Assembly: GCA_951406725.2 (NCBI GenBank)
Contig: OX597829.1
Coordinates: forward strand, 46,376,001-46,440,000
DNA from: Octopus vulgaris
Taxonomy: Eukaryota
Reading direction: 5' to 3'
DNA: 64,000 nucleotides
In this document: positions 2,984 through 42,155 of the stretch, one piece after another
How positions within the stretch are numbered: the first letter of the stretch is position 1
Layout: every line of letters starts with the position of its first letter
Program-made: the position numbers and the translations under genes
Notes under the pieces: generated by a model
Databases searched by the model: none
What the model was told of the DNA's origin: nothing
What the model saw: only the letters and a program-made list of their open reading frames with translations

Positions 2984-3103
2984 CTATTCACACACTACAG
3001 AAACCCAAACCCAAACGTATAATGCTACAAATGGATAACACGGGGTGAAATTTGAAAGTGGACGTGCTTTATATTGTATTCTAGTACATTCTAAGCAGAA
3101 TAT

Positions 3104-3322
3104 ACCTATTTCTTTACTACCTACAAGGGGACAAACAAGGACAGACACACGGATTAAGTGGATTATATCGACCCCAGTGCGTAACTGGTACTTATTTAAT
3201 CGACATCGAAAGGATGAAAGGCAAAGTCGACCTCGGCGGAATTTGAACTCAGAACGTAACGGCAGACGAAATACGGCTACGCATTTCGCCCGGCGTGTTC
3301 ACGATTCTGCTAGCTCGCCGCC
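3104..3322 (-). mobile_element. tRNA-derived SINE family B
   Basis: The minus strand starts GGCGGCGAGCTAGCAGAA and has a B-box-like GAGTTCAAATTCC. Same core as 28345-29085. Confidence 0.85.
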
Positions 3323-3759
3323 TCGATTCTAAGCAGAATATACCATAACTATACATACATGCGTATGTATGTATGTATATATGTATGTATGTATGTATAT
3401 ATGTATGTATGTATGTATGTATGTTTTCATTTTTGCAGGTGTATGTCTGTGCGCGCAAATGTGTGTGCACACAAATGACATTTCCTGCAAAAACTGTTTA
3501 TGAACACCTAACTAACTCATGACAAGTTTTGCTTCTTATGTTTCAAAAAATGATAATAGGATATGCAGGGTTTAGTGTGGGCAAATAAAAATAAATAGAG
3601 CGAGGGAAGGGTGGCAAGAAAAGTATCAATGATACTTCTGATCAATGTCAGAAGTGCTTGTCATATGACTGACGTTTAATGTGCAACAAGCAACTGGTAA
3701 AATGAATTAAACAGTTTTACCGTGAGAAAATGTCATTTGTATCACTTTTCCGTTTTATT

Positions 3760-4400
3760 TCGAGATACCTGGCCGACAGATAAAGTGCCGGTTTCTAATC
3801 TAGATCCGAGGTTTCTTCATTGGAATTTCAACACAAAGAACAAGGTACATGGGCAGTATATGGAGTCAGTGCATATGCAGATTAATATATTTTGTTTTAC
3901 GTTTATATTCCCATATTGGATCTGTAGTCTTCGAATCAACTCCCTACGTTTCTGGTTTTGAGAAGCCTAATTTCTCAAAATTGGTATTTTGAGAAGCGTA
4001 ATTTCTCAGGATTGGTATTTAGGCAGTGTGTCACATATCCCAGAGTCCTAATGATTACAAGTATAAACTTGAACTTGTAACAGATTTCTTAATTGTTCAA
4101 CGTAAGTATTTTATTCCTCACTTCAGCTTTATGTTAACATCTGCTGGGCAGCTAATTTCCCCAACTGTGCACTGTTTCTCTTTTCTATCCCAAACCATTA
4201 TATCAGATCTGTTATGTTTATATTTCATTGAGGTTTTCACTGCTACATTCCTCCAGAACTCCTTTTTATTATGAGTGGCTATCGTCTCTACCAAACTGTG
4301 GGTTTTATCATATCATTTCGTATTCTATTATTTTACCTCTTATGTTATTATGTTATCCTTCTAACATACCACATTATACAGTGTCCCGGCCAGATTATAT
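3760..4400 (-). pseudogene. 3' fragment of an R4/Dong-like (restriction-like endonuclease) non-LTR retrotransposon
   Basis: Minus-strand translation HNKKEFWRNVAVKTSMKYKHNRSDIMVWDRKEKQCTVGEISCPADVNI fits the RLE R(P/S)D..E motif. Same family as 31940-33420. Confidence 0.7.
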
Positions 4401-4602
4401 ATGTGTATATGTACGTACGTATTCATATATGTATGCGTTTATGTATGTATGTATATATGTATGTATGTATTATGTATGTGTACATATATATATAAACAAA
4501 AATATATGTATAGATAAGTTACACGGGCCTAAGCAGGCTAACACTGGTTGTCAAACGGTAGTGGAGGACTAACACAAAGACATACACACACACACACACA
4601 TA

Positions 4603-4783
<181 letters not shown>

Positions 4784-4863
4784 TAATCCAAACAAGAAAA
4801 CACAAAAAAACACAACAACGCGAGGACGTGGAACAAATATGGTATTATTGGACGCTCAGGAAA

Positions 4864-4924
<61 letters not shown>

Positions 4925-4926
<2 letters not shown>

Positions 4927-5258
4927 TAATATAGGATAAAATTTTTCGAAAAAAATTTTATCAATGTCCAGCATATTAAAAAATACCTTTAAAGGTTAAA
5001 TTTATAAACAACTTATAAACAAGGGCAAGAGAAAAATATGCCGAAAATAGACACATCGTCAATAACCATATAATTCATCATTATAAACACGCGTCCCGAA
5101 GAAAGCCGACAGATAATAAGGGAATTTTTTGTAATTTCTGTCGGCTTTCTTCGGGACACGTGTTTATAGTGATGAATTATATGGTTATTGACGATTTGTC
5201 TATTTTCGGCATATTTGGCATTAGAAATTTTTTTTCCTTTTGTCCTTGTTTATAAGTA
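4925..5258. mobile_element. Fold-back element in (TA)n, probably a Penelope-like terminal repeat
   Basis: 5014-5113 is an inverted repeat of 5137-5257. A single-orientation relative lies at 33478-33700. Confidence 0.6.
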
Positions 5259-5317
<59 letters not shown>

Positions 5318-5321
<4 letters not shown>

Positions 5322-5520
5322 ATCCAGACATGAAAGCACAAAAAACACAGCAACGCGAGGACGTGGAACAAATATAATATTATTGGACGCTCAGGAAAGA
5401 AGGAAAGACGGAGGGTTTAACGTTTCGAGCGGAGCTCTTCGTCGGAAACATAGGAGAAGGAAAGATCCAGAGAAGGGAAGACAGAGGAAAAAAATCGCCA
5501 ACGGTACACACGCGGTCATA
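5318..5520 (-). mobile_element. Short non-coding element with a minimal hammerhead motif
   Basis: Same family as 62415-62630 (+) and the partial copy at 4783-4866. Flanked by (TA)n and (CA)n. Confidence 0.65.
5415..5449 (-). ncRNA. Minimal type I hammerhead ribozyme-like motif (U4C variant)
   Basis: Minus strand: gttt CCGACGA a-gagc-tcc-gctc GAAA cg TT aaac. Stem I gttt/aaac, stem II gagc/gctc, palindromic AACGTT stem III. Confidence 0.55.
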
Positions 5521-5542
5521 CACACACACACACACACACACA

Positions 5543-5604
<62 letters not shown>

Positions 5605-6059
5605 AAATATATATATATATGCGCGTGTATGTATGTATGTTTATGTATATATGCTACTGGCTTCTTTCAGTTTCAGTCTAACAAATCCACTCACAAGGCT
5701 ATGGTCAGCCCAAGCCTATGTAGTTGTAGATGCCGGCAATGGAACTGAGCTAGAAACCACGTAGATGGAAGCAAGCTCCTTATCACACACTCCGACGCTT
5801 TTGCCTATATGCATATATTTATAAATGTATACGGATATCTATCTATCTATCCCCTAATCTAACCCATATATACACACACATACTCACGTAAATATCGAAC
5901 AATAGGAATGAATGCTCAACACTGAACTGGTAGATAAAATTTCTGTATTTGTATAATAAGTTTCAGGTTTCAGGTTAAGAAGAAATACCTTAATACATTA
6001 ACAATCTTTAAAGCCGACTACATTGGGAAACAAAGTCCGTCTACATTTTGGAGACATAT

Positions 6060-7279
6060 ATATCTTTTATCTTTAATTTGTTCCAGTCATTTGACTGCGA
6101 ACATGCTGGAGCACTGCCTTTAGTTGAGAAAATTGACCGCAGGACCTATTCTTTGTAAGCCTAGTACTTATTCTATCGGTCTCTTTTGCCAAACTGCTAA
6201 GTAATGGGGGCGTAAGCACATCAGCATCAGTTGTCAAGCGATTTTTGGGGATAAACACAGACACACATATACATACATATATATATATATACATATACAA
6301 ACATACACACCCCACACACACACTCACCCCCCCCACACACACACATATATATATATATAGTGTATGTACGCCGCCATATGTACATTAAAAATGGGACAAG
6401 AACACAAAACATCCACACAGATGATACAAAAGAGGGACAAGAAGAAACAACACGGACGGGCCATTTGAAGTTTTCTTTCCTCAGTCGAGTTCCAGATTAT
6501 CTTTGCAATTTCGGCTGGCTATACTCGAGATTGCTCCAAGGAAAAACTAAGCGAAGAGCATTAGATACCTTTGAAAAAAGCAGCAAATGTATATGAAAAC
6601 AAGGACGGAAAAAACAGGGAACTGGTACTCAAATACAAATAACAGGACATATCGACAGGTGTCGTTATGTCCTGTTTACTTGCATATGTATTTGTGTACC
6701 ATTTCCCTGTTTTCATATATATACGACGGGCTTCTTTCAGTTTCCCTCAACCAAATCCACTCACAAGGCTTTGGTCAACCCGAGGTTATAGTAGAAAACA
6801 CTTGACCAAGTTACCACGCATTGGGATTGAACCCGAAACCATATGGTCGGTGAGCAAGCTTCTTAACACACTGCCACTCCTGTGCCTAAACATATTCTTC
6901 TTTCTTTTATTTGTTTCAGTCGTTTGACTGTGGCCATGCTGGGGCATTGCCTTTTAGTCGAAGAAATCGACAGCAGGATTTAATATTTGTAAGCCTGGAA
7001 CTTATTCTATTTGTCTCTTTTGCCAAACCGCTGAGTTACGCGTGCGTAAACATACCAACATCGATTGTCAAGTGATGGTGGGGGAACAAACACAGGCACA
7101 AAGACACACACATAAATATATATATATACGACGGACTTCTCTCAGTTTCCGTCTACCAAATCCACTCACAAGGTTTTGGTCGCCCCTAGGCTATAGCAGA
7201 AGCCGCCACGCAGTGGGACTGAACCCAGAAGCATGTGGTTGGGAAGCAAGCTTCTTATTACCACACAGCCACGCCTGCG

Positions 7280-7282
<3 letters not shown>
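6060..7282 (-). mobile_element. Cluster of SINE family A pieces (6060-6270, 6723-6886, 6905-7282) around an unrelated element at 6380-6720
   Basis: Match to the reverse complement of 7946-8377. Confidence 0.75.
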
Positions 7283-7330
<48 letters not shown>

Positions 7331-7331
<1 letters not shown>

Positions 7332-7639
7332 TCACGTGATCACGTGACCGACCAGACCATCAAATGTTGTTACACATCGCTGGTCACAATGCGTTCGCAT
7401 TGTTTTAGCCTTCGAATGACGCCACCCCGCTGGCTAAGCGAGCAGGCCAACAGAAGAAAGAGTGAGAGAAAGTTGTGGTGAAAGAGTACACCAGGGATCA
7501 CCACCCCCTGCCGGAGCCTCGTGGAGCTTTTAGGTGTTTTCGCTCAATAAACACTCACAACACCCGGTCTGGGAATCGAAACCGCGATCCTGCGACCGCG
7601 AGTCCGCTGCCCTAACCATTAGGCCATTGCGCCTCCACC
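7331..7639 (-). mobile_element. tRNA-derived SINE family C
   Basis: Minus-strand head GGAGGCGCAATGGCCTAATGGTTAGGGCAGCGG..GGTTTCGATTCCC (A and B boxes). Homologous to 14802-15102. Confidence 0.85.
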
Positions 7640-11449: not shown

Positions 11450-12230
11450 TATGTATGTATGTATGTATATACTGGAACGTTATTTTTCATTAGAAACCAC
11501 CGAGATATAACACGATTAGAGAATCAATTTTCTATATTCCTGTCTGGCAAAGAGAACAACAACGGAGATATGAACTAGTTCAAAATTTCAAAGTATCGTA
11601 TAAAGGAAAAACAACATTTCCCTTGACATATATTTAAAATTATCCATGTACGTTGTTTCGTATAGTAATTAATTTAACAGGCCACTGAAGATAATAATCG
11701 ATATACTGGAGTCAGATAATGTAGTGTTTATCAATATATTTGTAGCACAGTTTTTGTCAGTCAACAGGTCGTAGATTCGAGCGAAGTAAGTTTGACACCA
11801 TTATTGTTGATAAATGTTCACGTGACATTAACAGTCTTTGTGTGTTTATGAATGTCTAAACTATGTTTACCAGATTGCAATCGTTTTAGCTTCAGCAAAT
11901 GATTTAAAATCAAATGACTAGGTATTCAAGTGCATCTCAGCAATAGCTTTGTATATTTCTTCTTCAACAAAGGCTCATCTCAGAAGAGAGATACCCTTGT
12001 GTGTTTTTTTTTTCTTTATTAACTCCCATGGAATAGAAGGTAATTTGAGAAAGAATGAAGCGAAAAGAACACGTGACTGCCGAATATATTGCAAGGTTCA
12101 CAGACTACAGCTAGAAATCTGCAGTTGCTAAGTGATACCTAAAATATCGGAAAGGCCAATCGAAAGATTTTCATGAGAATGCGTAGGTGGTGTCGTTAAA
12201 AGATTTGGGCATATAAGTGATGTATATATA

Positions 12231-12619
12231 TCTTTATATATAAAAGTAAGGTTGTGTGTCTGTCTACTCCGATTTAGATTCCTAACTACTCCCACATTTT
12301 GCGGTGCAGTTTAACCAAAACCGGGTATCTTATAGTCGGGATTCATATCGAGCCCTTCTGGGTATTAGCGCGCGTCTACGATGAGTCTACGATTTAAAAA
12401 ATAATTTACCATAATTTTTTCCCATTTTAATGCATATTTTTTTAAAGGGAAGTAACTCTCTAAAAATGTCTACGATGATTCAACGATTTAAAAAAAATTT
12501 ACTATCATATTTTTTCCATTTTTAATGCATTTTTTTGCTAATTTTTGGCTATAACTCTCTAAAAATGCTGTATAGTTAATTCCCTTACAAACCCGAGCAA
12601 CGCCGGGCGATACTGCTAG
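12231..12619 (+). mobile_element. Non-autonomous Helitron, family 1, two internal repeat units
   Basis: A|TCTTTATATATAAAA ... CCCGAGCAACGCCGGG..CTAG|T. Confidence 0.85.
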
Positions 12620-12620
12620 T

Positions 12621-15645: not shown

Positions 15646-15885
15646 TCTAATTAATGAAACAAGTAGAATGTAGAAGTTCTTCATGCATACATACATAACA
15701 TACATACATAGTTACATACATATATTCTTACATGCATACATTTATACATACATAATACATACATATACGCATGCATGCATACATACACTATCACATACAT
15801 ACATGTATACATACATGCATTCGTACCAACATTCATACATACATATATGCATATATACATACATATATGCATTCATAATTAAATA

Positions 15886-16527
15886 TACAATACACATTGT
15901 GTACAGGACACCAATGAATGAAAATACGTAAACACACGAGAGAAAACTAAAAGACAAAATACTAAAAAGACGATATCTCCTCATCAATTGTCGACTGTTT
16001 ATTACTCCTATTTCGTGCTTTTAATGACAAAATAGGGCAACTTCATAAGACAGCAGCATCCAGAATTTTTTTAAATATAAAGTACATGGAGAGTTAGGGC
16101 TTCGAACGAACAAACAACGACAGAGTGGACGTACAGAGTAGACACAATCGACGAAGACGAACGTTAAGGGACGTTAAAGATAGAGGAATTGTAATGGGAG
16201 GAAATTTTCAATGAAATAGAATAATTAGAAGAGAAGAAAATAGTCGAGGAAAAATTTCGGAATCTGAGAGAAATGACGTCCAGCCTAATGGACGTCAAGT
16301 ACAGAAAAGACAGAGGCAAGAGAAATGGCCTGTAGTCACGTGTGAGTAACAGAGGCAAAGTGGAAGAGGGACAAGGGAGAGGATGAGGGAAAGATGACAA
16401 AAGGAGTGAGGAGAAGGGACTAGGAGTGACAGATAGTAGGAAGCGAAAGAAAGACAGATAGGGAATAGCAAAGCAGGTTATAGTGGGTTAGAGAGAAAAA
16501 GCACAAAAGAGCGTGCAGTCGCAGAAA
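15886..16527 (-). mobile_element. Penelope/retrozyme-like non-coding element with a degenerate hammerhead; its end resembles the satellite monomer
   Basis: Minus strand 15994-16054 reads gctgt CTTATGA agttgc..gcac GAAA taggag TA. 15890-15968 resembles the 85-bp satellite unit. Confidence 0.5.
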
Positions 16528-17058
16528 TCTCTATATATAAAACTGTAGTTGTGTGAGTGTCTGTCTCCTACGATTTAGATTCCTAACTACTCCCACATTT
16601 TGCGGTGCAGTTTAACCAACTTCGGGTATCTTATAGTCGTGATTCATATCGAGCCCGTCTGGCTATTAGCGCGCGTCTGGCTATTAGCGCGCGTCTACGA
16701 TGAGTCTACGATTTTAAAAATAATTTAACATCATTTTTTATTCCATTTTAATGCATAATTTTTCGTGTGTCGATGGCGGCGGAGTTGGCGTCCATGGTCA
16801 CACCTGCACCTGTTTGCTTCTCCCCCTTCTTCCCTCCCTCGTGAAGCTGTGGGGAAGGGAGTGTAAAGAAATAAACGTCGTAAAGCGTTGTCAAGGAGAC
16901 CAGCGTTCTTTTAGAACAACGACTTCATGGCTTGAAGACACCAAAACAGAAATGGCTAAGAAAGCCCGAATTGGCATCTATAAGGGAAGTAACTCTCTAA
17001 AAATGCTTATATAGTTATTTCCCTTACAAACCCGAGCAACGCCGGGCGATACTGCTAG
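16528..17058 (+). mobile_element. Non-autonomous Helitron, family 1, long form
   Basis: A|TCTCTATATATAAAA ... hairpin, CTAG|T. Confidence 0.85.
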
Positions 17059-17062
17059 TTAT

Positions 17063-17178
17063 ATGTAAATGTATTAACATACTGTTGTCAAGGCAGTGTG
17101 GCGTTCGATTATGAATAAATAAAAAAAATACACAGTAAGTACAGTACATCACCAACGAGTGAAAAATACGTAAACACC
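17063..17178 (+). repeat. Left inverted arm bounding the satellite
   Basis: Its reverse complement matches the last monomer plus unique flank (to 27440) and also the first monomer at 17181-17230. Confidence 0.8.
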
Positions 17179-17179
17179 C

Positions 17180-19039
17180 GTGTGTTTACGTATTTTTCTC
17201 ACGTTGGTGATGTCCTGTACTTATTCTGTATGTTTTTGGTATTTTGAGCTGTAATCATCTCTCGTGTGCTTACGTATTTTTCTCACGTTGGTGATGTCCT
17301 GTACTTATTCTGTATGTTTTTTGGTATTTTGAGCTGTACTCATCTCTCGTGTGCTTATGTATTTTTCACTCGCTGGTGATGTCCTGTATTCATTGTGTAT
17401 GTTTTTTGGTATTTTGAGCTGTACTCATCTCTCGTGTGCTTATGTATCTTTCTCACGTTGGTGATGTCCTGTATTCATTGTGTATGTTTTTTTGTATTTT
17501 GAGCTGTACTCATCTCTCGTGTGCTTATGTATTTTTCTCACGTTGGTGATGTCCTGTACTTATTCTGTATGTTTCTGGTATTTTGAGCTGTACTCATCTC
17601 TCGTGTGCTTATGTATTTTTCTCACGTTGGTGATGTCCTGTACTTATTCTGTATGTTTTTTGGTATTTTGAGCTGTACTCATCTCTCGTGTGCTTATGTA
17701 TTTTTCACTCGCTGGTGATGTCCTGTACTTATTCTGTATGTTTTTTGGTATTTTGAGCTGTACTCATCTCTCGTGTGCTTATGTATTTTTCACTCCCTGG
17801 TGATGTCCTGTATTCATTGTGTATGTTTTTTTGTATTTTGAGCTGTACTCATCTCTCGTGTGCTTATGTATTTTTCACTCGCTGGTGATGTCCTGTACTT
17901 ATTCTGTATGTTTTTTGGTATTTTCAGCTGTACTCATCTCTCGTGTGCTTGTGTCTCATTTTTCTCACGTTGGTGATGTCCTGTACTTATTCTGTATGTT
18001 TTTTGGTATTTTGAGCTGTACTCATCTCTCGTGTGCTTATGTATTTTTTCACGTTGGTGATGTCCTGTACTTATTCTGTATGTTTTTTGGTATTTTGAGC
18101 TGTACTCATCTCTCGTGTGCTTATGTATTTTTCACTCGCTGGTGATGTCCTGTATTCATTGTGTATGTTTTTTTGTATTTTGAGCTGTACTCATCTCTCG
18201 TGTGCTTATGTATTTTTCACTCGCTGGTGATCTCCTGTACTTATTCTGTATGTTTTTTGTATTTTGAGCTGTACTCATCTCTCGTTTGCTTATGTATTTT
18301 TCACTCGCTGGTGATGTCCTGTACTTATTCTGTATGTTTTTTGGTATTTTGAGCTGTACTCATCTCTCATGTGCTTATGTATTTTTCACTCGCTGGTGAT
18401 GTCCTGTATTCATTGTGTATGTTTTTTGGTATTTTGAGCTGTACTCATCTCTCGTGTGCTTATGTATTTTTCTCACGTTGGTGATGTCCTGTACTTATTC
18501 TGTATGTTTTTTTGTATTTTGAGCTGTACTCATCTCTCGTGTGCATATGTATTTTTCTCACGTTGGTGATGTCCTGTACTTATTCTGTATGTTTTTTTGT
18601 ATTTTGAGCTGTACTCATCTCTCGTGTGCTTATGTATTTTTCACTCGCTGGTGATGTCCTGTATTCATTGTGTATGTTTTTTGGTATTTTGAGCTGTACT
18701 CATCTCTCGTGTGCTTATGTATTTTTCTCACTGTTGGTGATGTCCTGTATTCATTGTGTATGTTTTTTTGTATTTTGAGCTGTACTCATCTCTCGTGTGC
18801 TTATGTATTTTTCTCACGTTGGTGATGTCCTGTACTTATTCTGTATGTTTTTTGGTATTTTGAGCTGTACTCATCTCTCGTGTGCTTATGTATTTTTCAC
18901 TCGCTGGTGATGTCCTGTATTCATTGTGTATGTTTTTTCATATTTTGAGCTGTACTCATCTCTCGTGTGCTTATGTATTTTTCTCACGTTGGTGATGTCC
19001 TGTACTTATTCTGTATGTTTTTTGGTATTTTGAGCTGTA
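17180..19039 (+). repeat. 85-bp tandem satellite, block 1 (~22 units)
   Basis: gtgatgtcct recurs at 17291, 17376 and 17461, a period of 85. Confidence 0.95.
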
Positions 19040-20470
19040 ATGCATGCATACATACACTATCACATACATACATGTATACATACATGCATTCGTACCAACA
19101 TTCATACATACATATATGCATATATACATACATATATGCATTCATAATTAAATATACAATACACATTGTGTACAGGACACCAATGAATGAAAATACGTAA
19201 ACACACGAGAGAAAACTAAAAGACAAAATACTAAAAAGACGATATCTCCTCATCAATTGTCGACTGTTTATTACTCCTATTTCGTGCTTTTAATGACAAA
19301 ATAGGGCAACTTCATAAGACAGCAGCATCCAGAATTTTTTTAAATATAAAGTACATGGAGAGTTAGGGCTTCGAACGAACAAACAACGACAGAGTGGACG
19401 TACAGAGTAGACACAATCGACGAAGACGAACGTTAAGGGACGTTAAAGATAGAGGAATTGTAATGGGAGGAAATTTTCAATGAAATAGAATAATTAGAAG
19501 AGAAGAAAATAGTCGAGGAAAAATTTCGGGATCTGAGAGAAATGACGTCCAGCCTAATGGACGTCAAGTACAGAAAAGACAGAGGCAAGAGAAATGGCCT
19601 GTAGTCACGTGTGAGTAACAGAGGCAAAGTGGAAGATGTCCTGTATTCATTGTGTATGTTTTTTTATATTTTGAGGGAAAGATGACAAAAGGAGTGAGGA
19701 GAAGGGACTAGGAGTGACAGATAGTAGGGAGCGAAAGAAAGACAGATAGGGAATAGCAAAGCAGGTTATAGTGGGTTAGAGAGAAAAAGCAGAAAACAGC
19801 GTGCAGTCGCAGAAATCTATATATATAAAACTGTAGTTGTGTGAGTGTCTGTCTCCTACGATTTAGATTCCTAACTACTCCCACATTTTGCGGTGCAGTT
19901 TAACCAACTTCGGGTATCTTATAGTCGTGATTCATATCGATCCCGTGTCTGGCTATTAGCGCGCGTCTGGCTATTAGCGCGCGTCTACGATGAGTCTGTA
20001 CGATTTTAAAAATAATTTAACATCATTTTTTATTCCATTTAATGCATAATTTTTCGTGTGTCGATGGCGGCGGAGTTGGCGTCCATGGTCACACCTGCAC
20101 CTGTTTGCTTCTCCCCTTCTTCCCTCCTCTCGTGAAGCTGTGGGGGAAGGGAGTGTAAAGAAATAAACGTCGTAAAGCATTGTCAAGGAGACCAGCGTTC
20201 TTTTAGAACAACGACTTCATGGCTTGAAGACACCAAAACAGAAATGGCTAAGAAAGCCTGAATTGAGCATCTATAAGGAAGTAACTCTCTAAAAATGCTT
20301 ATATAGTTATTTCCCTTACAAACCCGAGCAACGCCGGGCGATACTGCTAGTTATATGTAAATGTATTAACATACTGTTGTCAAGGCAGTGTGGCGTTCGA
20401 TTATGAATAAATAAAAAAAATACACAGTAAGTACAGTACATCACCAACGAGTGAAAAATACGTAAACACC
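19040..20470 (+). repeat. Near-identical tandem copy of 15772-17179, including the Helitron at 19816-20350 and a second left arm
   Basis: The sequence restarts at tgcatgcatacatacactatcac, an offset of about 3.27-3.29 kb. Confidence 0.9.
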
Positions 20471-23400
20471 CGTGTGTTTACGTATTTTTCTCACGTTGGT
20501 GATGTCCTGTACTTATTCTGTATGTTTTTGGTATTTTGAGCTGTAATCATCTCTTGTGTGCTTATGTATTTTTCTCACGTTGGTGATGTCCTGTACTTAT
20601 TCTGTATGTTTTTGGTATTTTGAGCTGTACTCATCTCTCGTGTGCTTACGTATTTTTCTCACGTTGGTGATGTCCTGTACTTATTCTGTAAATTTTTTTA
20701 TAGTATATTGAGCTGTACTCATCTCTCGTGTGCTTATGTATTTTTCACTCGCTGGTGATGTCCTGTATTCATTGTGTATGTTTTTTGGTATTTTGAGCTG
20801 TACTCATCTCTCGTGTGCTTATGTATCTTTCTCACGTTGGTGATGTCCTGTATTCATTGTGTATGTTTTTTTGTATTTTGAGCTGCACTCATCTCTCGTG
20901 TGCTTATGTATTTTTCTCACGTTGGTGATGTCCTGTACTTAATCTGTATGTTTCTGGTATTTTGAGCTGTACTCATCTCTCGTGTGCTTATGTATTTTTC
21001 TCACGTTGGTGATGTCCTGTACTTATTCTGTATGTTTTTTGGTATTTTGAGCTGTACTCATCTCTCGTGTGCTTATGTATTTTTCACTCGCTGGTGATGT
21101 CCTGTACTTATTCTGTATGTTTTTTGGTATTTTGAGCTGTACTCATCTCTCGTGTGCTTATGTATTTTTCACTCGCTGGTGATGTCCTGTATTCATTGTG
21201 TATGTTTTTTTGTATTTTGAGCTGTACTCATCTCTCGTGTGCTTATGTATTTTTCACTCGCTGGTGATGTCCTGTACTTATTCTGTATGTTTTTTGGTAT
21301 TTTGAGCTGTACTCATCTCTCGTGTGCTTATGTATTTTTCTCACGTTGGTGATGTCCTGTACTTATTCTGTATGTTTTTTGGTATTTTGAGCTGTACTCA
21401 TCTCTCGTGTGCTTATGTATTTTTCTCACGTTGGTGATGTCCTGTACTTATTCTGTATGTTTTTTTGTATTTTGAGCTGTACTCATCTCTCGTGTGCTTA
21501 TGTATTTTTCACACGCTGGTGATGTCCTGTATTCATTGTGTATGTTTTTTTGTATTTTGAGCTGTACTCATCTCTCGTGTGCTTATGTATTTTTCACTCG
21601 CTGGTGATCTCCTGTACTTATTCTGTATGTTTTTTTGTATTTTGAGCTGTACTCATCTCTCGTGTGCTTATGTATTTTTCACTCGCTGGTGATGTCCTGT
21701 ACTTATTCTGTATGTTTTTTGGTATTTTGAGCTGTACTCATCTCTCGTGTGCTTATGTATTTTTTCACTCGCTGGTGATGTCCTGTATTCATTGTGTATG
21801 TTTCTTTTGTATTTTGAGCTGTACTCATCTCTCGTGTGCTTATGTATTTTTCTCACGTTGGTGATGTCCTGTACTTATTCTGTATGTTTTTTTGTATTTT
21901 GAGCTGTACTCATCTCTCGTGTGCATATGTATTTTTCTCACGTTGGTGATGTCCTGTACTTATTCTGTATGTTTTTTTGTATTTTTGAGCTGTACTCATC
22001 TCTCGTGTGCTTATGTATTTTTCACTCGCTGGTGATGTCCTGTATTCATTGTGTATGTTTTTTGGTATTTTGAGCTGTACTCATCTCTCGTGTGCTTATG
22101 TATTTTTCTCACGTTGGTGATGTCCTGTATTCATTGTGTATGTTTTTTTGTATTTTGAGCTGTACTCATCTCTCGTGTGCTTATGTATTTTTCTCACGTT
22201 GGTGATGTCCTGTACTTATTCTGTATGTTTTTTGGTATTTTGAGCTGTACTCATCTCTCGTGTGCTTATGTATTTTTCACTCGCTGGTGATGTCCTGTAT
22301 TCATTGTGTATGTTTTTTTATATTTTGAGCTGTACTCATCTCTCGTGTGCTTATGTATTTTTCTCACGTTGGTGATGTCCTGTACTTATTCTGTATGTTT
22401 TTTGGTATTTTGAGCTGTACTCATCTCTCGTGTGCTTATGTATTTTTCTCACGTTGGTGATGTCCTGTACTTATTCTGTATGTTTTTTTGTATTTTGAGC
22501 TGTACTCATCTCTCGGGGTCTTATGTATTTTTCTCACGTTGGTGATGTCCTGTACTTATTCTGTATGTTTTTTGGTATTTTGATCTGTACTCATCTCTCG
22601 TGTGCTTATGTATTTTTCTCACGTTGGTGATGTCCTGTACTTATTCTGTATGTTTTTTGGTATTTTGAGCTGTACTCATCTCTCGTGTGCTTATGTATTT
22701 TTCACTCCCTGGTGATGTCCTGTATTCATTGTGTATGTTTTTTGTTATTTTGAGCTGTACTCATCTCTCGTGTGCTTATGTATTTTTCACTCGCTGGTGA
22801 TGTCCTGTACTTATTCTGTATGTTTTTTTGTATTTTGAGCTGTACTCATCTCTCGTGTGCTTATGTATTTTTCTCACGTTGGTGATGTCCTGTACTTATT
22901 CTGTATGTTTTTTGGTATTTTGAGCTGTACTCATCTCTCGTGTGCTTATGTATTTTTCACTCGCTGGTGATGTCCTGTATTCATTCTGTATGTTTTTTTG
23001 TATTTTGAGCTGTACTCATCTCTCGTGTGCTTATGTATTTTTCACTCGCTGGTGATGTCCTGTACTTATTCTGTATGTTTTTTTTGTATTTTGAGCTGTA
23101 CTCATCTCTCGTGTGCTTATGTATTTTTCACTCGCTGGTGATGTCCTGTACTTATTCTGTATGTTTTTTGTATTTTGAGCTGTACTCATCTCTCGTGTGC
23201 TTATGTATTTTTCACTCGCTGGTGATGTCCTGTACTTATTCTGTATGTTTTTTGGTATTTTGAGCTGTACTCATCTCTCGTGTGCTTATGTATTTTTCAC
23301 TCGCTGGTGATGTCCTGTATTCATTGTGTATGTTTCTTGGTATTTTGAGCTGTACTCATCTCTCGTGTGCTTATGTATCTTTCTCACGTTGGTGATGTCC

Positions 23401-26400
23401 TGTATTCATTGTGTATGTTTTTTTGTATTTTGAGCTGTACTCATCTCTCGTGTGCTTATGTATTTTTCTCACGTTGGTGATGTTCTGTACTTATTGTGTA
23501 TGTTTTTTTGTATTTTGAGCTGTACTCATCTCTCGTGTGCTTATCTATTTTTCACTCGCTGGTGATGTCCTGTATTCATTGTGTATGTTATTTTGTATTT
23601 TGAGCTGTACTCATCTCTCGTGTGCTTATGTATTTTTCTCACGTTGGTGATGTCCTGTACTTATTCTGTATGTTTTTTGGTATTTTGAGCTGTACTCATC
23701 TCTCGTGTGCTTATGTATTTTTCACTCGCTGGTGATGTCCTGTACTTATTCTGTATGTTTTTGGTATTTTGAGCTGTACTCATCTCTCGTGTGCTTATGT
23801 ATTTTTCTCACGCTGGTGATGTCCTGTACTTATTCTGTATGTTTTTTTGTATTTTGAGCTGTACTCATCTCTCGTGTGCTTATGTATTTTTCACTCGCTG
23901 GTGATGTCCTCTACTTATTCTGTATGTTTGTTTGTATTTTGAGCTGTACTAATCTCTCGTGTGCTTATGTATTTTTCACTCGCTGGTGATGTCCTGTATT
24001 CATTGTGTATGTTTTTTTGTATTTTGAGCTGTACTCATCTCTCGTGTGCTTATGTATTTTTCACTCGCTGGTGATGTCCTGTACTTATTCTGTATGTTTT
24101 TTTTGTATTTTGAACTGTACTCATCTCTCGTGTGCTTATGTATTTTTCACTCGCTGGTGATGTCCTGTACTTATTCTGTATGTTTTTTGGTATTTTGAGC
24201 TGTACTCATCTCTCGTGTGCTTATGTATTTTTCACTCGCTGGTGATGTCCTGTATTCATTGTGTATGTTTTTTGGTATTTTGAGCTGTATCTCTCGTGTG
24301 CTCTTTCTCACGTCTGTCCTGTATTCATTGTGTATGTTTTTTGTATTTTGGCTCGTGTGCTTATGTATCTTTCTCACGTTGGTGATGTCCTGTATTCATT
24401 GTGTATGTTTTTTTGTATTTTGAGCTGTACTCATCTCTCGTGTGCTTATGTATTTTTCTCACGTTGGTGATGTCCTGTACTTATTCTGTATGTTTTTTTG
24501 TATTTTGAGCTGTTCTCATCTCTCGTGTGCTTATGTATTTTTCACTCGCTGTTGATGTCCTGTATTCATTGTGTATGTTTTTTTATATTTTGAGCTGTAC
24601 TCATCTCTCGTGTGCTTATGTATTTTTCTCACGTTGGTGATGTCCTGTACTTATTCTGTATGTTTTATGGTATTTTGAGCTGTACTCATCTCTCGTGTGC
24701 TTATGTATTTTTCTCAAGTTGGTGATGTCCTGTACTTATTCTGTATGTTTTTTTGTATTTTGAGCTGTACTCATCTCTCGTGTGCTTATGTATTTTTCTC
24801 ACGTTGGTGATGTCCTGTACTTATTCTGTATGTTTTTTGGTATTTTGAGCTGTACTCATCTCTCGTGTGCTTATGTATTTTTCACTCGCTGGTGATGTCC
24901 TGTACTTATTCTGTATGTTTTTGGTATTTTGAGCTGTACTCATCTCTCGTGTGCTTATGTATTTTTCAATCGCTGGTGATGTCCTCTACTTATTCTGTAT
25001 GTTTTTTTGTATTTTGAGCTGTACTCATCTCTCGTGTGCTTATGTATTTTTCACTCGCTGGTGATGTCCTCTATTCATTCTGTATGTTTGTTTGTATTTT
25101 GAGCTGTACTCATCTCTCGTGTGCTTATGTATTTTTCACTCGCTGGTGATGTCCTGTATTCATTGTGTATGTTTTTTTGTATTTTGAGCTGTACTCATCT
25201 CTCGTGTGCTTATGTATTTTTCACTCGCTGGTGATGTCCTGTACTTCATTCTGTATGTTTTTTTGGTATTTTGAGCTGTACTCATCTCTCGTGTGCTTAT
25301 GTATTTTTCTCACGTTGGTGATGTCCTGTACTTATTCTGTATGTTTTTTGGTATTTTGAGCTGTACTCATCTCTCGTGTGCTTATGTATTTTTCACTCCC
25401 TGGTGATGTCCTGTATTCATTGTGTATGTTTTTTGTTATTTTGAGCTGTACTCATCTCTCGTGTGCTTATGTATTTTTCACTCGCTGGTGATGTCCTGTA
25501 TTCATTGTGTATGTTTTTTTGTATTTTGAGCTGAACTCATCTCTCGTGTGCTTATGTATTTTTCACTCCCTGGTGATGTCCTGTATTCATTGTGTATGTT
25601 TTTTGGTATTTTGAGCTGTACTCATCTCTCGTGTGCTTATGTATCTTTCTCACTCGCTGGTGATGTCCTGTATTCATTCTGTATGTTTTTTGGTATTTTG
25701 AGCTGTACTCATCTCTCGTGTGCTTATGTATTTTTCTCACGTTGGTGATGTCCTGTACTTATTCTGTATGTTTTTTTGTATTTTGAGCTGTACTCATCTC
25801 TCGTGTGCTTATGTATTTTTCACTCGCTGGTGATGTCCTGTATTCATTGTGTATGTTTTTTGGTATTTTGAGCTGTACTCATCTCTCGTGTGCTTATGTA
25901 TTTTTCTCACGTTGGTGATGTCCTGTACTTATTCTGTATGTTTTTTGTATTTTGAGCTGTACTCATCTCTCGTGTGCTTATGTATTTTTCACTCGCTGGT
26001 GATGTCCTGTATTCATTGTGTATGTTTTTTGTTATTTTGAGCTGTACTCATCTCTCGTGTGCTTATGTATCTTTCTCACTGTTGGTATGTCCTGTATTCA
26101 TTGTGTATGTTTTTTGTATTTTGAGCTGTACTCATCTCTCGTGTGCTTATGTATTTTTCTCACGTTGGTGATGTCCTGTACTTATTCTGTATGTTTTTTG
26201 GTATTTTGAGCTGTACTCATCTCTCGTGTGCTTATGTATTTTTCACTCGCTGGTGATGTCCTGTATTCATTGTGTATGTTTTTTGGTATTTTGAGCTGTA
26301 CTCATCTCTCGTGTGCTTATGTATTTTTCACACGTTGGTTGATGTCCTGTACTTATTCTGTATGTTTTTTGGTATTTTGAGCTGTACTCATCTCTCGTGT

Positions 26401-27380
26401 GCTTATGTATTTTTCACTCGCTGGTGATGTCCTCTACTTCATTCTGTATGTTTTTTTGGTATTTTGAGCTGTACTCATCTCTCGTGTGCTTATGTATTTT
26501 TCACTCGCTGGTGATGTCCTGTACTTATTCTGTATGTTTTTTGGTATTTTGAGCTGTACTCATCTCTCGTGTGCTTATGTATTTTTCACTCGCTGGTGAT
26601 GTCCTGTACTTATTATGTATGATTTTTGTATTTTGAGCTGTACTCATCTCTCGTGTGCTTATGTATTTTTCACTCGCTGGTAATGTCCTGTATTCATTGT
26701 GTATGTTTTTTTGTATTTTGAGCTGTACTCATCTCTCGTGTGCTTATGTATTTTTCACTCGCTGGTGATGTCCTGTACTTATTCTGTATGTTTTTTGTAT
26801 TTTGAGCTGTACTCATCTCTCGTGTGCTTATGTATTTTTCACTCGCTGTTGATGTCCTGTACTTATTCTGTATGTTTTTTTGTATTTTGAGCTGTACTCA
26901 TCTCTCGTGTGCTTATGTATTTTTCACTCGCTGGTGATGTCCTCTACTTATTCTGTATGTTTTTTGGTATTTTGAGCTGTACTCATCTCTCGTGTGCTTA
27001 TGTATTTTTCACTCGCTGGTGATGTCCTGTACTTATTATGCATGTTTTTTTGTATTTTGAGCTGTACTCATCTCTCGTGTGCTTATGTATTTTTCACTCG
27101 CTGGTAATGTCCTGTATTCATTGTGTATGTTTTTTGGTATTTTGAGCTGTACTCATCTCTCGTGTGCTTATGTATTTTTCTCACGTTGGTGATGTCCTGT
27201 ACTTATTCTGTATGTTTTTTGTATTTTGAGCTGTACTCATCTCTCGTGTGCTTATGTATTTTTCACTCGCTGGTGATGTTCTGTACTTATTCTGTATGTT
27301 TTTTGTATTTTGAGCTGTACTCATCTCTCGTGTGCTTATGTATTTTTCACTCCCTGGTAATGTCCTGTATTCATTGTGTA
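20471..27380 (+). repeat. 85-bp tandem satellite, block 2 (~81 units)
   Basis: Continuous monomers with two diagnostic variant sites. Confidence 0.95.
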
Positions 27381-27754
27381 TAGTTTATTCATTTATAATC
27401 GAACGCGACACAGCCTTGACCACAGTAAGTTCATACATTCATACATACATGCATACATGGAGCAAAGAGGGTGCGGTTACAAATTCCATCATAGAAGGTT
27501 GCAGGGAAAGCCACCACGTGGCTTTAGATAAAGAGGGGAGACCAGCGGTTTGCTTCAAGTGGCATGCGAGCAGGAAGATAATCAACCCCGGTTGGATCAA
27601 CTGAGGGAAGGGGTCTGATGGTGAAAGACCCAATATCCCCTGAGACCATGGAAACTTTTCATTGACGATGCATTCCAGAGTATCAGTGAAATGTATCTTA
27701 AAACATTTTGCTGTTTTTTTGGGGGGAGGTGGGGATTGTCATTAATATTAATTT

Positions 27755-28330
27755 CAAATTTTGTTACAAGGCCAGCAATTTTGGAGGATGGATTAAGTTG
27801 ATTACATCGACCCCAGTGTTCAACTGGTACTTATTTTATTGACACCGAAAGGATGAAAGGCAAGGTTGATCCCAGTGGCTTTTAAACTTTGAAATTTTGC
27901 CAAGAGGTCAGCAATTGTGGAAGAGGGTATAAGTCGATCACATAAACCCCAGTGCTCTACTGGTTCTTATTCTATCGACTCCGAAAAGCAAAGTCGTTCC
28001 CAGCAGCATTTGAACTAAGGACGTATAATCGGAAGAAATACTTCTAAGCAATTTTTTCGGCACGGTAACATTTCTGCTAGCTCACCACAGTTTTAATGTC
28101 ATTAATATTACAAAAGATGATAAGGCGGTGAGCTGGCAGAATTGTTAATGCACCTGACGAAATGCTTTGTGGTATTACGTCCGTCTACACGTTCTTCTTG
28201 CGTTCAAATTCCGTTGAGGTCGACTTTGCCTTTCACCTTTTTGGAGTCGATAAAATGAGTAGCAACTGAGGACTGGGGTCAATATAATCGACTATCCGCC
28301 TCCTCCAAACTTACTGGTTTTGCTCAAAAA
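27755..28330. mobile_element. Degenerate SINE family B copies in both orientations
   Basis: Family B core motifs. Confidence 0.7.
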
Positions 28331-28344
28331 TTTGAAGCCGATAT

Positions 28345-29085
28345 TTTTTCTACTCTAGGCACAAGGCCCGAAATCTTGGGGGAGGGGGCCAATAGATTAG
28401 ATCGACGCCAGTGCGTGGCTGGTACTTAATTTATCGACCCCGAAAGGATGAAAGGCAAAGTCAACCTCGGCAGAATTTGAACTCAGAACGTAGCGGCAGA
28501 CGAAATATCTATTTCTTTACTACCCACAAGGGGCTAAACACAGAGAGGACAAACAAGGACAGACACATTGATTAAGTCGATTATATCGACCCCAGTGCGT
28601 AACTGGTACTTAATTTATCGAGTCCGAAAGGATGAAAGGCAAAGTCGACCTCGGCGGAATTTGAACTCAGAACGTAACGATAGACGAAATATCTATTTCT
28701 TTACTACCCACAAGGGGCTAAACACAGAGAGGACAAACAAGGACAGACACATTGATTAAGTCGATTATATCGACCCCAGTGCGTAACTGGTACTTAATTT
28801 ATCGAGTCCGAAAGGATGAAAGGCAAAGTCGACCTCGGCGGAATTTGAACTCAGAACGTAACGATAGACGAAATACCTATTTCTTTACTACCCACAAGGG
28901 GCTAAACACAGAGAGGACAAACAAGGACAGACACACGCATTAAGTCGATTATCTCGACCCCACTGCGTAACTGGTACTTAATTTATCGACCCCGAAATGA
29001 TGAAAGGCAAAGTCGACCTCGGCGGAATTTGGACTCGGAACGTAACGGCAGACGAAATATCGCTAAGCATTTCGTCCGGCGTCTT
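28345..29085 (-). mobile_element. Tandem array of SINE family B (four cores, 184-bp period)
   Basis: Near-identical units start 184 bp apart (28568 and 28752). Confidence 0.85.
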
Positions 29086-29846: not shown

Positions 29847-30586
29847 CTAAAATACCAAAAAAAAAAAAAAAATAATGTGAATAAAGTGATAAGAGGAAAA
29901 ATGAAAAATAAAAAATGGACATTGATTAAGAAAAGGAGGTTGCGAAATAAATAGATGTTGAAAACAGTCAGAAGAGGAAAAAGACTTGACAGCAAGCAAA
30001 AAAAAAAAAAAAAAAAAAAAGTTCGATACCACCGACATGGTTGTATGATGGAGAGAAACAAACACGAAGAGAGGAACGGAAATATGGGACACAAAGAAGC
30101 GAAGAATAAATATATGAAAAGAAGAATAAAGGGCTGAAGAATGAGCTAAGAATAATTGAAGGCAAAGATAATGGCTGATGCATCAGAAAATAATTAGGCT
30201 GGTAGCCAAAAAAAAAAAAAAAAAGGAAAAAGAAGTAAAATGGAAAGAAAAGCAAGTAAAATAAGAAAAGATATGGCGATATATAGCCAAGATGTAGAGG
30301 AGGTAAATCACTGCATAGCTAGCAACCAAGTTACGTAGATAAATGGAAACATAGATGAATTAATTTCAGGCGAAATTAGTAGGGATTCAGCGACGAAGCC
30401 AAAGCGAGGCCAAGTAGAGAATTTGGGTGATGCAATAATCGTATACGTACATGAATACATACATACATACATACATACATACATACATACATACATACAT
30501 ACATACATACATACATACATACATACATACATAAATTCATACATACATACATGATGGCTGCCCCCTCGTTATCGAGTATGGCCATT

Positions 30587-30974
30587 GGACGTTATCAAAG
30601 AAGCTTGAGAGGCGGTTGGATGGTACCTACACTCGCCTCCTTATGAGAGCTCAAAATCTCTCGTGGAAGCGCCATCCAACCAAAATGCAAATATATGGGA
30701 AACTACCACCTGTGTCATCTCTTGTGAAAGGTAAGAGAGTCCAGTTTGCTGGACATTGTTGTAGAGCTGAAAAAGAAGTAATTTCTACTCTTCTCCTCTG
30801 GAAGCCATCTACTCGCAATACCAGAGGGCGCACACTCTCCTACCCTGATGTAATCTCCAGGGATACAGGCATCCAGCAACAGGACCTCCGTAATGCCATG
30901 ATGGACCATGAAGTCTGGCGTAGCATGGTAAATTCCATTGTCTCGACCACGGTCGAACAATGATGATGATGATG
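30587..30974 (+). mobile_element. 5'-truncated RTE-like LINE 3' end
   Basis: WTLSKKLERRLDGTYTRLLMRAQNLSW..FAGHC..; (TGA)n tail; target-site duplication ATGGCCATT at 30578-30586 and 30975-30983. Confidence 0.85.
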
Positions 30975-31939: not shown

Positions 31940-33420
31940 ATCTAACATTCAGAATGTGTCTCAGCCATCACTGATAAAAGCGTTCAAGGACCCTTACGTG
32001 ACGTTTTGTAAAGGGTCTCTGTCTCACATGAATAAAGGAACGGTGTCAGTACACATGCACCGTACACAGAAATTTTTGTTTGTCTTGCAATGCCATGCTG
32101 GGACCATGCATAAGTATGTTTCTTGCAGAACTGAAGAAGGTAGTAACATTGACTTAAAGCAAAGCCTGTCTGAGATTCGTGACTGCTTCATCACATCACA
32201 CTTTGAAGGCTATCAATTTGCAATCCATGAACAGGAGATTGCTACTAAATACCTAAAAATCAAAAGGGACAGCAAAGCCCTTGGAGTTCCATGATGCAAC
32301 AAAATGTAGATTATATCATACTAGCACTATGACCCGACAACGCGAGTACTGTCCAAATCTCCGACCAATCACATACAGCTAGCTGGGATTAAATTGGCGT
32401 ATCAAGTTTCGGGCATTTTGATTGGGTTTTGGATAGAAAATTCACACAAAAGTCACTTCTATTGATTTTTTAATGGCTTTGCGGAGTGACTGGGGAAATA
32501 TAAAGATCTGCACGACCACTCTTGCACGGTTTTGAATGACCATAGAAAGTGCGAGCCCTCTAACTAAAAAATTGTGGATTTGTATAAAGGATACACACAC
32601 AGACAGACATTTTGCCGTTTATATATATATATATAGATTTCTGTGAGACATCACACATGTGATTAGCAGCTGCCGAAAAATATCATTACGAAACTACCTC
32701 CCTAAGCGACATGACATTGTCGCTAAAACAATATACGAAGCCATTCGGTATGTATGTATGTATGTATGTATGTATGTATGTATGTATGTATGTATGTATG
32801 TATGTATGTATGTATGTATGTATGCATGTATGTATGCATGTATGTATGTATGTATGTATGTGTTTACGTATGTATGTATAATATGCATGTATGTTTTTAT
32901 GCGTGTACTCTATCCCTACAAACATCAACACAAGGGATACAGGTGGAATATTCCCCTCAAAACATCTGTCGAGTGTAAACATAAGAGGTCAGATACTGTT
33001 GTCTGGGACAACAAGAAAAAAGTATATAGCGTCACAGAGGTCAGCTGACCTGCTAATGTGAATATCTGTTTGAAAATGAAGGAGAAAAAAGACAACTATG
33101 GACACAAGAGATTCAAAACCTCCAGCTTCTAATATTCGGATTACAAATTTATATTTATAACAATAATAATTGGTGCGCTTGGTTTTGTAAGCAAATGCCT
33201 AACTGTCAGTCTGGATAAGCTTGGATTTTCAGTAAAAGAAATCAACCAACTGATTCGCACATAACAAATACAATCTGTAATCAGAACGGTGAAGCTATGC
33301 AAGAATTTTCTCAGGTTTCAAATGTGACATTGCTTTTGTTATGGACATTCCAATGATGTAGTTTGTATCTTTGTTAGAAACCAGCCCCGTCCTCAGAGGA
33401 AGAATTTAATGTTCGCCTCA
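31940..33420 (+). pseudogene. R4/Dong-like RLE non-LTR retrotransposon 3' part, interrupted by a Helitron and (TATG)n
   Basis: ITSHFEGYQFAIHEQEIATKYL; HVISSC..YLPKRHDIVAK (zinc-knuckle region); KHKRSDTVVWD..TEVS (RLE domain). Confidence 0.75.
32321..32637 (-). mobile_element. Non-autonomous Helitron, family 2
   Basis: The minus strand starts A|TCTATATATATATATAAACGG and ends cgcgttgtcgggtcatagtgCTAG|T. Confidence 0.7.
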
Positions 33421-35472: not shown

Positions 35473-35907
35473 CTAAAGATGGCCATGTATGTTTAAGTTA
35501 TCGCTGATATAAAATATATAAAATATTACATTCATTGTCTCTATGTCTATTTATTTATCTCTCGCAGACTCACTACACACAAATACAATGTCTGCACATA
35601 CATGGGACACTGACGCACATACACATGCATACACACACATATACACACACAAATATCCATGAATTGACATTACAAGTAGAGTTGGTATAGAAACAAATTT
35701 AACGAATCATTAAAGATGTGTTAAAGAATTTTCTTTGCCTTCTTATCATTTGGATATTTACTCTTCGTCAAACTCACTTAACAGTATTATTGTTGGGAAG
35801 CACCTGAGGAATTCTGGCTTTGGCCTGGAATCCGACAGCATTGATAGCTCAGTATTCTGGTCGAGTGCTTCTCTAGAAATACTCTAACTTTACACCTTAC
35901 CATGAGC

Positions 35908-37200
<1,293 letters not shown>

Positions 37201-38520: not shown

Positions 38521-39862
38521 AACACATATTTGTATGCATGTGTATATTATATATATATATATTGATTGGTAGTTTCATTACTGTTCTTCTATACCGTAAG
38601 AATCCTCAATAGAAATGTCGAACGATTCCATAAAAACAAACGTAGCTTGACATATGTACTCTTACGTGAAAGACTCATTGAATTTCATTTTTGTTTTATT
38701 CCCTATAAACTTTACAACATTATATCGTATCTGTCTCAGGAATACAGTCGTACATCTATCAACGTCTGGTGGATATTTGCTTATGCGTTTCCACGAGTAT
38801 TCTTTACAAATCTACATTTCTATGTCTATATACGTCAAGTGAGAATTGAGAAAAGAGTTCAGATTTATAGATTTGCACGTATTTCTATTATACTTACCTT
38901 ATTTATGTTTTCATTTATTTAATTCATTTATTTATTTTATTTATTTATTTATAGTTTGCTTCACTGTATCGAGAAACAGTTGCTATTTTCTCGCAAGCTG
39001 AAAATCATAGCAGCCATCTTGTTTTGAATTTATTATATTAACTGGGTACGGAGCATTTATGACATTTTGTTTTTAATTTTACATATTTGTAGGATTATAT
39101 TATAATACAGGGATTAGAAGAGATTAACTTTCAATACATTAAATCTCTTTCACTTCCTGCGATTATCATAGACCGTTTTCTTTAAGAAAATAAATTGTAA
39201 ATACTATTATTCGATTTGATTTTAAATTGTCTCCGTTTTCTTTCTTATTTTTATTTTTATTACATTTAATAATTTTATGTTTTCATTTCATTTTACTTTT
39301 CGTTATTGATTAAATTCGTATTATTGAAGATCAAAGTCGTGAAAAAGAGAAATTGTAAGATTTTTTTGCGATATGTTTTTTCTTTTTTTTTGCTATTCAT
39401 TTGATGAAACAAACGGAATGAAGGATTGCAGAGAGAATCCCGGATTTAACTCTTAATAACTACAAATAATTTCGTTTTACTTTGTTATGTTTTACTATAT
39501 CGAAAACAGAATCGTTAAATAACTTTTTGTAAAGCGTTACGATTAAATATAGAAATAAATAAATATGAAATTCATTAAAAAAAGAATGATATAACTATAT
39601 CTTCACTGATTTTTCCTTTCAATAAAAATTTCTCAAATATGACAAAGAAAATTTTCTTTTATCTTTCTGAGGCTGATATGACGAAACCTTACATTAAGGG
39701 AAAAGGGAAACTGTTATAACTCTCCAATAAACAACGTTGAAAAACTACAAAAAAAAAAAAAAGAAAAAATTAACAAAAGCAGAAAGGATAAAGAAAATCA
39801 ACATAAATCCAAATTGATAACAAGAAGTCAAAGTTACATACAGGGAGAAATATATATATATA

Positions 39863-40260
39863 TCTTTATATATAAAAGAGAAGTTGTGCGTCTGTCTCCT
39901 ACGATTTAGATTCCTAACTACTCCCACATTTTGCAGTGCAGTTTAACCAAAACCGGGTATCTTATAGCCGTGATTCATATCGAACCCTTCTGGGTATTAG
40001 CGCGCGTCTACGATAAGTGTACGATTTAAAAAAAAATTTACCATAATTTTTTTCCATTTTAATGCATTTTTTCTCTATTATATAAGGGAAGTAACTCTCT
40101 AAAAATGTCAACGATGAGTCAACGATTTAAAAAAAAAATTACCATCATTTGTTTTCCATTTTTAATGCATTTTTTGGCTATTTTTTGGCTATAACTCTCT
40201 AAAAATGCTTATATAGTTATTTCCCTTACAAACCCGAGCAACGCCGGGTGATACTGCTAG
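39863..40260 (+). mobile_element. Non-autonomous Helitron, family 1, two internal units
   Basis: TC..CTAG termini, 3' hairpin, A|T insertion site. Confidence 0.85.
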
Positions 40261-40543
40261 TATATATATATATATATATATATTTGTTTTAAGCTGATAA
40301 TAATAAGCCATAACTCTGTAATAAGAGTGAAATAACCAGGTATGCAAAGCTTACACGACGGGCTTCTTCCATTTTCCCTCTACCGAATCCACTCACAAAG
40401 CTTTGGTCGGCTCGAGGCCATAGAAGACACTTACCCAAGATTGTGAAGCAAGCTTCTTACCGCACAGTCAGGCCAGCGCCTATATGTGTATATACATGTC
40501 TATATAGTTATATTCACACACGCATATATATATACACACACAC

Positions 40544-42091: not shown

Positions 42092-42155
<64 letters not shown>

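Follow-up and report, generated by a model that had tools for sequence, protein, structure and literature searches.

An 85-bp minisatellite lies within an inverted end-piece of a repeated element in the 64,000-nucleotide stretch of Octopus vulgaris DNA that we analysed (assembly GCA_951406725.2, contig OX597829.1; hereafter the window). We found that arm, flank and monomer all come from one dispersed repeat family: once a Helitron-type insertion is set aside, positions 15871-17179 make up a single copy of a dispersed, ~705-bp unit that has a direct terminal repeat. The array together with 27382-27447 is an inverted piece of the end of that same unit. In the reading that we prefer, to which we assign a probability of about 0.5 including all the steps proposed below, the minisatellite grew from an 85-bp end piece of this unit inside the inverted end-piece of an old, likely non-autonomous Penelope-type insertion. 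It is a transposon-derived tandem repeat of an ordinary kind, a real feature that is smaller than was originally claimed, and the array implies no function. The components of the locus are as follows.

15682-15870, plus strand: degenerate (CATA)n microsatellite that flanks the whole insertion on the left (Tandem Repeats Finder, 15682-15877, period 4)
15871-15968, minus strand: older terminal copy R3, a whole 85-bp monomer plus ~15 bp, inverted relative to the array and without the extension (72-76% to monomers)
15969-16527, minus strand (assumed): non-coding body of the dispersed ~705-bp repeat family (many 80-90% contigs in all four runs, aligned on the duplicate, 19176-19800)
16528-17058, plus strand: non-autonomous Helitron-type insertion splitting the element, A/TC...CTAG/T with a hairpin close to its 3' end (nine copies across the window)
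17059-17179, minus strand: left arm (R5), composed of 52 monomer bp, 15-20 bp reaching the unit end and 49 bp entering the body
17178-17181, no strand: head-to-head palindrome centre (sequence, fold)
17180-19039, plus strand: array block 1, 22 monomers, the last of 75 bp (a copy of the first 23 monomers of block 2)
19040-20471, no strand: second copy of 15771-17179 (identical in 1481 of 1526 columns), in which microsatellite, R3, flank, Helitron, left arm and hairpin all recur
20472-27381, plus strand: array block 2, made up of 81 full 85-bp monomers and a partial one of 52 bp (Tandem Repeats Finder, sequence)
27382-27447, plus strand: end of the inverted piece, comprising the unit end (to ~27399) and then a 32-47-bp extension without counterpart in R3
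27432-27458, plus strand: short (CATA)n, right flank, on the same strand as the left flank

The original prediction that 17063-17178 is the reverse complement of the last monomer plus its flank, up to 27440, was borne out: within the window 17062-17180 matches 27329-27447 in reverse complement at 81% over 121 columns (E 5e-23). The outer arm alone (17062-17123 versus 27384-27447) reaches 86% over 64 bp, with a score of 82 against the tail where the maximum in 2000 shuffles was 24. The array does begin at a hairpin centre, as was also proposed, with arms of 56 nt (17122-17177 and 17182-17237) that are 89% complementary, stand 4 nt apart and fold with a z of -9.9 (0 of 200 shuffles were as good). 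Across both blocks there are about 104 monomers of 85 bp (22, 81 and the 52-bp part). Block 2, the longest continuous block, holds 81.6 monomers in 6.9 kb with a mean pairwise identity of 94%, and a search for a higher-order repeat in the array found none, with no periodic peak at lags 1-30. The monomer itself has an internal 35/50-bp likeness, and nhmmer detected no further monomer or tail copies in the window beyond those listed. At 24215-24440, in block 2, a monomer carries a run of several short deletions, probably a read error.

Arm, flank and monomer belong to one dispersed family

To compare the locus with other members of the family, contigs of four public runs (X1-X4; three organism labels, four studies) were aligned to 18960-20560 at a likeness of 80%, with differences read from 40 of 290 rows. 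All four runs carry the family, with 71-87 contigs per run at 19307, 84-105 at 20437, 9-21 at 20371/20387 and 9-14 at 19732. The sequence beside the monomer, originally taken for unique flank, thus turns out to be repetitive, since the arms belong to a dispersed family. Joints that link the arm end to the body (20466-20469 to 19276) were found in all four runs, being 3 of the 15 joints listed out of 191, and indicate that elsewhere in the family the arm leads on into the body with no fold-back. None of those 15 listed joints changes strand, as a hairpin junction or head-to-head layout in another copy would. In one X1 contig the Helitron is missing, and 19815 is linked to 20368 through 17 different letters.

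The direct terminal repeat pairs R3 (15871-15938) with the arm (17108-17180), and it is R3 that holds the full monomer: 33 of the monomer's 85 bp are missing from the left arm and present in R3, so that the palindrome is not by itself a sufficient source for the monomer, which the original prediction had placed wholly within the arm. At four of four sites checked by eye (19187, 19216, 19221 and 20437) the monomer carries the family majority letter where the local copy differs, which points to descent from family-type sequence rather than from the arm as it stands. T-runs mark the unit boundaries, with the R3 match to the monomer starting at one and the arm carrying one at the other. We also considered the inner arm as a copy of monomer 1, to which it is indeed closer (7 differences versus 9-13), but rejected this since the shared letters occur in R3 as well and are therefore ancestral.

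These observations bear directly on the view that the locus is a fold-back or MITE-type DNA transposon like Tetris, in which the 116-bp inverted arms would be terminal repeats and internal repeats would have expanded. Inverted arms do enclose the array, which starts at their centre, and there is a precedent in Drosophila virilis (PMC4079207). Against this, in other family members the arm extends into the body at both ends and hence is no terminus, the left arm lacks 33 bp of the monomer and is free of tandem repeats, unlike Tetris arms, and no target duplication is seen outside the arms at this locus, all of which makes a fold-back transposon improbable. What holds of the small palindromic fold-back element first proposed is that the array sits inside an inverted-repeat arm and starts at its centre; the inverted repeat itself forms the end of a dispersed element of larger size (15871 to ~27440).

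The array is likelier a local minisatellite than a genome-wide satellite. Only 10 public runs contain the right-end stretch, with no RNA run listed as containing it, and the share of sequence words from 27246-27750 is 0.66 in X1, 0.54 in X2 and 0.28 in both X3 and X4 (X8-X10 had small word shares and were excluded). X3 and X4, which bear other organism labels, carry the family, and among their 16 listed records there is no near-identical piece of the array locus. Summed contig depth, which is not copy number, was 279-7451 in the first monomer bin versus over a million on the Helitron bins. Motif scans of metagenome contigs and viral contigs gave 0 matches.

The element is split by a Helitron-type insertion, which was inserted after the ~705-bp element was in place and lies outside the array. 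Helitrons are marked by a 5' TC, a 3' CTAG with a short hairpin, an A/T target and no target duplication, and 16528-17058 shows the hallmarks of a non-autonomous member. All nine copies in the window end in CTAG/T after a hairpin, and 8 of 9 start with A/TC (one is short by about 5 bp). They constitute a young non-autonomous family of 300-610 bp with 8 independent copies in 64 kb, and contigs also link the 3' end of the element to its own 5' end. The remaining copies are:

158-1176: Helitron-type, a head-to-tail pair
12230-12620: Helitron-type
39862-40261: Helitron-type
42155-42454: Helitron-type
43938-44547: Helitron-type, with an internal tandem of 103 bp x 4
54870-55265: Helitron-type

The window holds other repeats as well. 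Beyond the right flank, at 27750-29080, copies of a SINE-like repeat cluster in both orientations; two of them form an inverted pair (27909-28316, 68%). A further small array derived from a transposon lies in the same cluster at 28395-29061, a tandem of 184 bp x 3.6. Two near-identical open frames (30535-30963 and 53366-53740) presumably represent the C-terminal end of an RTE-type LINE protein. Further frames we take, on resemblance, to be pieces of a mariner transposase (47278-47637), a LINE reverse transcriptase (48446-49173), a restriction-like endonuclease (32647-33048) and an L1/Tx1 element (35848-36396), and the frame at 59791-60153 presumably carries a Helitron Rep N-terminal cysteine motif.

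A 3.3-kb duplicate that interrupts the array

The original prediction of a ~10-kb array of ~100 monomers was right in its count of 85-bp units but not in their continuity. Since 19040-20471 repeats 15771-17179, there are two left arms and the array is interrupted, and the repetition extends into the array itself: monomer i of block 1 matches monomer i+1 of block 2 with a summed edit distance of 26 over 20 monomers, where other offsets give 116 +/- 21. From this collinearity we conclude that 15771-19039 duplicates 19040-22419. In our judgement this 3.3-kb duplicate is probably a false duplication in the assembly, produced when two overlapping contig or read ends (15771-19039 and 19040-22419) would have been joined untrimmed, each worst at its own end.

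The differences between the copies are lopsided and rich in indels. Outside the insert described below, the flanks show 8 substitutions and as many small indels. Of the 12 differences in the Helitron part, 11 occur in copy 2 alone when the other copies in the window are compared (p 0.006). Private array changes in block 2 number 3 in the first 4 compared monomers and 4 later, and those in block 1 number 1 early and 11 later. In the shared part block 2 is one monomer longer than block 1, as expected of two alleles. Where copy 1 has 16 letters of flank, copy 2 alone carries a 41-bp piece that resembles the monomer (19635-19675; a 35-for-16 replacement at 19637-19671), which is either a polishing error or a templated repair insertion. 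Contigs from X1 (19597-19791) and X2 (19552-19838) read the copy-1 letters across this site and so are without the insert; X1 and X2 may come from other individuals, and X3 and X4 have no cover there.

A real tandem duplication, with the insertion templated during repair, would give two hairpins and about 104 monomers. The junction at 19039/19040 has neither gap nor N, the initial 490 bp are identical between the copies, and the insert shows short matches at both ends. We nevertheless regard a real duplication as somewhat unlikely, given the lopsided, indel-rich differences and the contigs without the insert. It would touch the assembly step alone and is compatible with the rest of our explanation. 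Should the duplicate be false, as we favour, the array comes to ~82 copies in 6.9 kb. The tandem itself is no artefact, as a head-to-tail monomer joint was found in run X2.

False duplications on a single scaffold are among the long-read assembly errors reported in the accessible text of PMC9516828. Our locus is like them in that two almost identical copies, differing as errors or alleles would, stand next to each other on the same scaffold, and unlike them in that the copies abut without a gap. The locus flags a probable 3.3-kb false duplication in the GCA_951406725.2 assembly.

Class of the element

The layout of the element suggests that it is probably a non-autonomous Penelope-type insertion. 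Read on the minus strand, the locus consists of an inverted terminal piece with its extension, the palindrome centre, a truncated direct terminal copy, the body and an extension-less terminal copy, with CATA runs of one strand on both sides. For Penelope and Poseidon, Arkhipova et al. (PMC3846280) describe, in the text available, two direct pseudo-LTRs (pLTRs), an adjacent inverted pLTR, head-to-head junction palindromes and a 31-bp tail on one end. The accessible portions of Craig et al. (PMC8557442) likewise describe partial tandems, an adjacent inverted 5'-truncated copy, a 30-40-bp tail at one end and microsatellite targets. With these Penelope/Poseidon, Naiad and Hydra insertions our locus shares the direct partial-tandem terminal repeat (15871-15938 at 17108-17180, with arm-to-body joints in 4 of 4 runs), and the inverted truncated copy with a palindrome at the junction (both seen at the array locus only); less certainly, it resembles them in the one-end extension and the microsatellite flanks. 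The extension at 27382-27447 measures 32 bp to the start of the CATA run or 47 bp to the end of the match and is absent from R3, a comparison from a single locus that decay of R3 could mimic. Penelope tails have been linked to internal priming in vitro (available text of PMC11167929), and Penelope-like elements are given as 6.83% of the O. vulgaris assembly in the accessible part of PMC13282606.

The locus differs from the published Penelope-like insertions, as far as their available descriptions go, in that it is ~705 bp only, lacks an ORF remnant, a canonical hammerhead and a cephalopod consensus match, and has an 85-bp piece amplified within the inverted copy. We found no reverse transcriptase or GIY-YIG remnant, with 0 significant Pfam matches in 6 open frames, and a search of 1.84 billion proteins returned one low-complexity match only; a separate search with the arm frame yielded no candidate. 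A missing ORF is what would be expected of a non-autonomous copy, yet membership in Penelope stays unproven. No Rfam hammerhead was present among 52 matches at E<=10, no hammerhead descriptor matched within the element, and on the microsatellite and palindrome Rfam gave only microRNA-hairpin and other sub-threshold matches. Hammerhead half-cores do occur in permuted order near 15981-16014 (minus strand), where the family majority letter at 19256 gives the first, CUGAUGA-like half-core with GAAA 23 nt upstream, without proper stems. The same order of GAAA and half-core appears in the printed 3' end of Naiad_Obim in PMC8557442, whose accessible text records half-cores for some Naiads, describes Naiads as lacking a canonical hammerhead and lists Octopus families. 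Exact 10-14-mers searched in the Naiad, Chlamys and Hydra consensus files (584-kb supplement) left 10 of 11 motifs without a match and gave 1 chance match, a search in which line breaks or divergence can hide matches. The preferred targets listed for cephalopod families in the available portion of PMC8557442 are (TA)n, where our locus is flanked by (CATA)n. No target-site duplication is readable at the locus; 15870-15877 and 27436-27443 share an 8-mer, which we disregarded because it overlaps sequence of the family.

The element could instead be LTR-like or TRIM-like, or an unclassified tandem-unit repeat, with the head-to-head junction a later local fold-back (by template switch, or by deletion between inverted copies) in which the array grew likewise. 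Direct terminal repeats and arm-to-body joints suit any element with terminal direct repeats, Penelope protein and ribozyme were not found, and by eye the plus strand shows CA/TGG at 16085-16089 and then a tRNA-like run (16085-16107). The complement of this run, we presume, resembles a tRNA T-loop and 3' end, as a primer site or by chance. Conversely, no polypurine tract stands directly before the arm, contigs cross 19355 (e.g. 19261-19413) with no cluster of loose ends there among the 24 rows listed, and separate accidents would be needed for the inversion, the one-sided extension and the same-strand CATA runs on both sides. We therefore hold an LTR-like or unclassified origin to be rather unlikely, and continue with the Penelope-type reading.

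Growth of the array and comparison with known systems

On the Penelope-type reading, the direct piece and the inverted, head-to-head piece would both stem from one target-primed insertion into a CATA microsatellite. The first dimer would best be explained by slippage from one T-run to another 85 bp away, either in the course of reverse transcription or at a later replication, in an arm that was longer at the time and subsequently lost its centre; the 33 bp that the left arm lacks would have entered the inverted piece by a postulated step. Unequal exchange and gene conversion would then have enlarged and mixed the array to about 82 copies. Three two-state sites show 7 of 8 possible combinations among 76 of 81 classified monomers, and these variant combinations, the 94% mean identity and the lack of a higher-order period support unequal exchange and conversion. 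Of the growth routes originally offered, unequal exchange thus agrees with the variant pattern and rolling-circle amplification fits poorly. Nor can we uphold the idea of a satellite caught being born: the arms are 14-19% apart while the monomers are 94% alike, which implies an old seed and later turnover.

The same variant pattern weighs against the adjacent Helitron having generated the array by rolling-circle read-through, because mosaic monomer variants suit recombination and not a single copying run. The Helitron-type 3' end does lie 3 bp from the arm, and Helitrons are known to yield tandem arrays (in the accessible text of the review PMC12628747). Yet the array is outside the Helitron and contains none of its sequence, and with 8 independent copies in 64 kb adjacency is cheap, so that a Helitron origin appears very improbable.

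A further possibility, quite unlikely on present evidence, is that head-to-head Penelope-type insertions seed minisatellites on insertion, the reverse transcriptase slipping between T-runs 85 bases apart so that the inverted end-piece is born as a dimer. If so, 85-bp dimers or arrays would be expected at the corresponding position in other copies of the family; from a single locus, the slip cannot be shown to date from the insertion. Such a route from retroelement end to satellite was not found described in the literature that we searched.

This single locus is of value because the presumed template, an unexpanded copy at a distance of 1.2 kb, can be read alongside the boundaries of the unit and the two array ends; it demonstrates no new mechanism or function. 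Satellites from transposon sub-segments are routine according to the accessible text of the review PMC12628747, and our array is like them in being a tandemized part of a transposon, as known for LTRs, UTRs and terminal repeats. That text does not mention Penelope, and a minisatellite from an inverted pLTR was found neither there nor in our literature search, which covered titles and the starts of abstracts and is thin evidence of absence. If our reading is correct, Penelope-type terminal repeats would join the transposon parts known to seed tandem arrays.

Two further systems are close in the portions of the literature available. Non-LTR retrozymes, which are non-autonomous Penelope derivatives occurring in tandem (bioRxiv 10.64898/2026.07.22.740005), are similar in being short, non-coding units related to pLTRs, but there the whole hammerhead-bearing unit is repeated, and here an 85-bp sub-piece without a hammerhead. 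Tetris / TIR-220 of D. virilis, as described in the accessible text of PMC4079207, carries in an inverted arm a satellite-like array of up to 66 copies, for which unequal crossing over has been invoked, and thus likewise shows an array grown within the inverted arm of a non-autonomous element. Tetris differs from our locus in being of the TIR fold-back type, flanked by target duplications of 8-10 bp and with tandem repeats as a regular part of its arms, whereas the arm in O. vulgaris is a repeat-free, internal piece of a direct-repeat unit.
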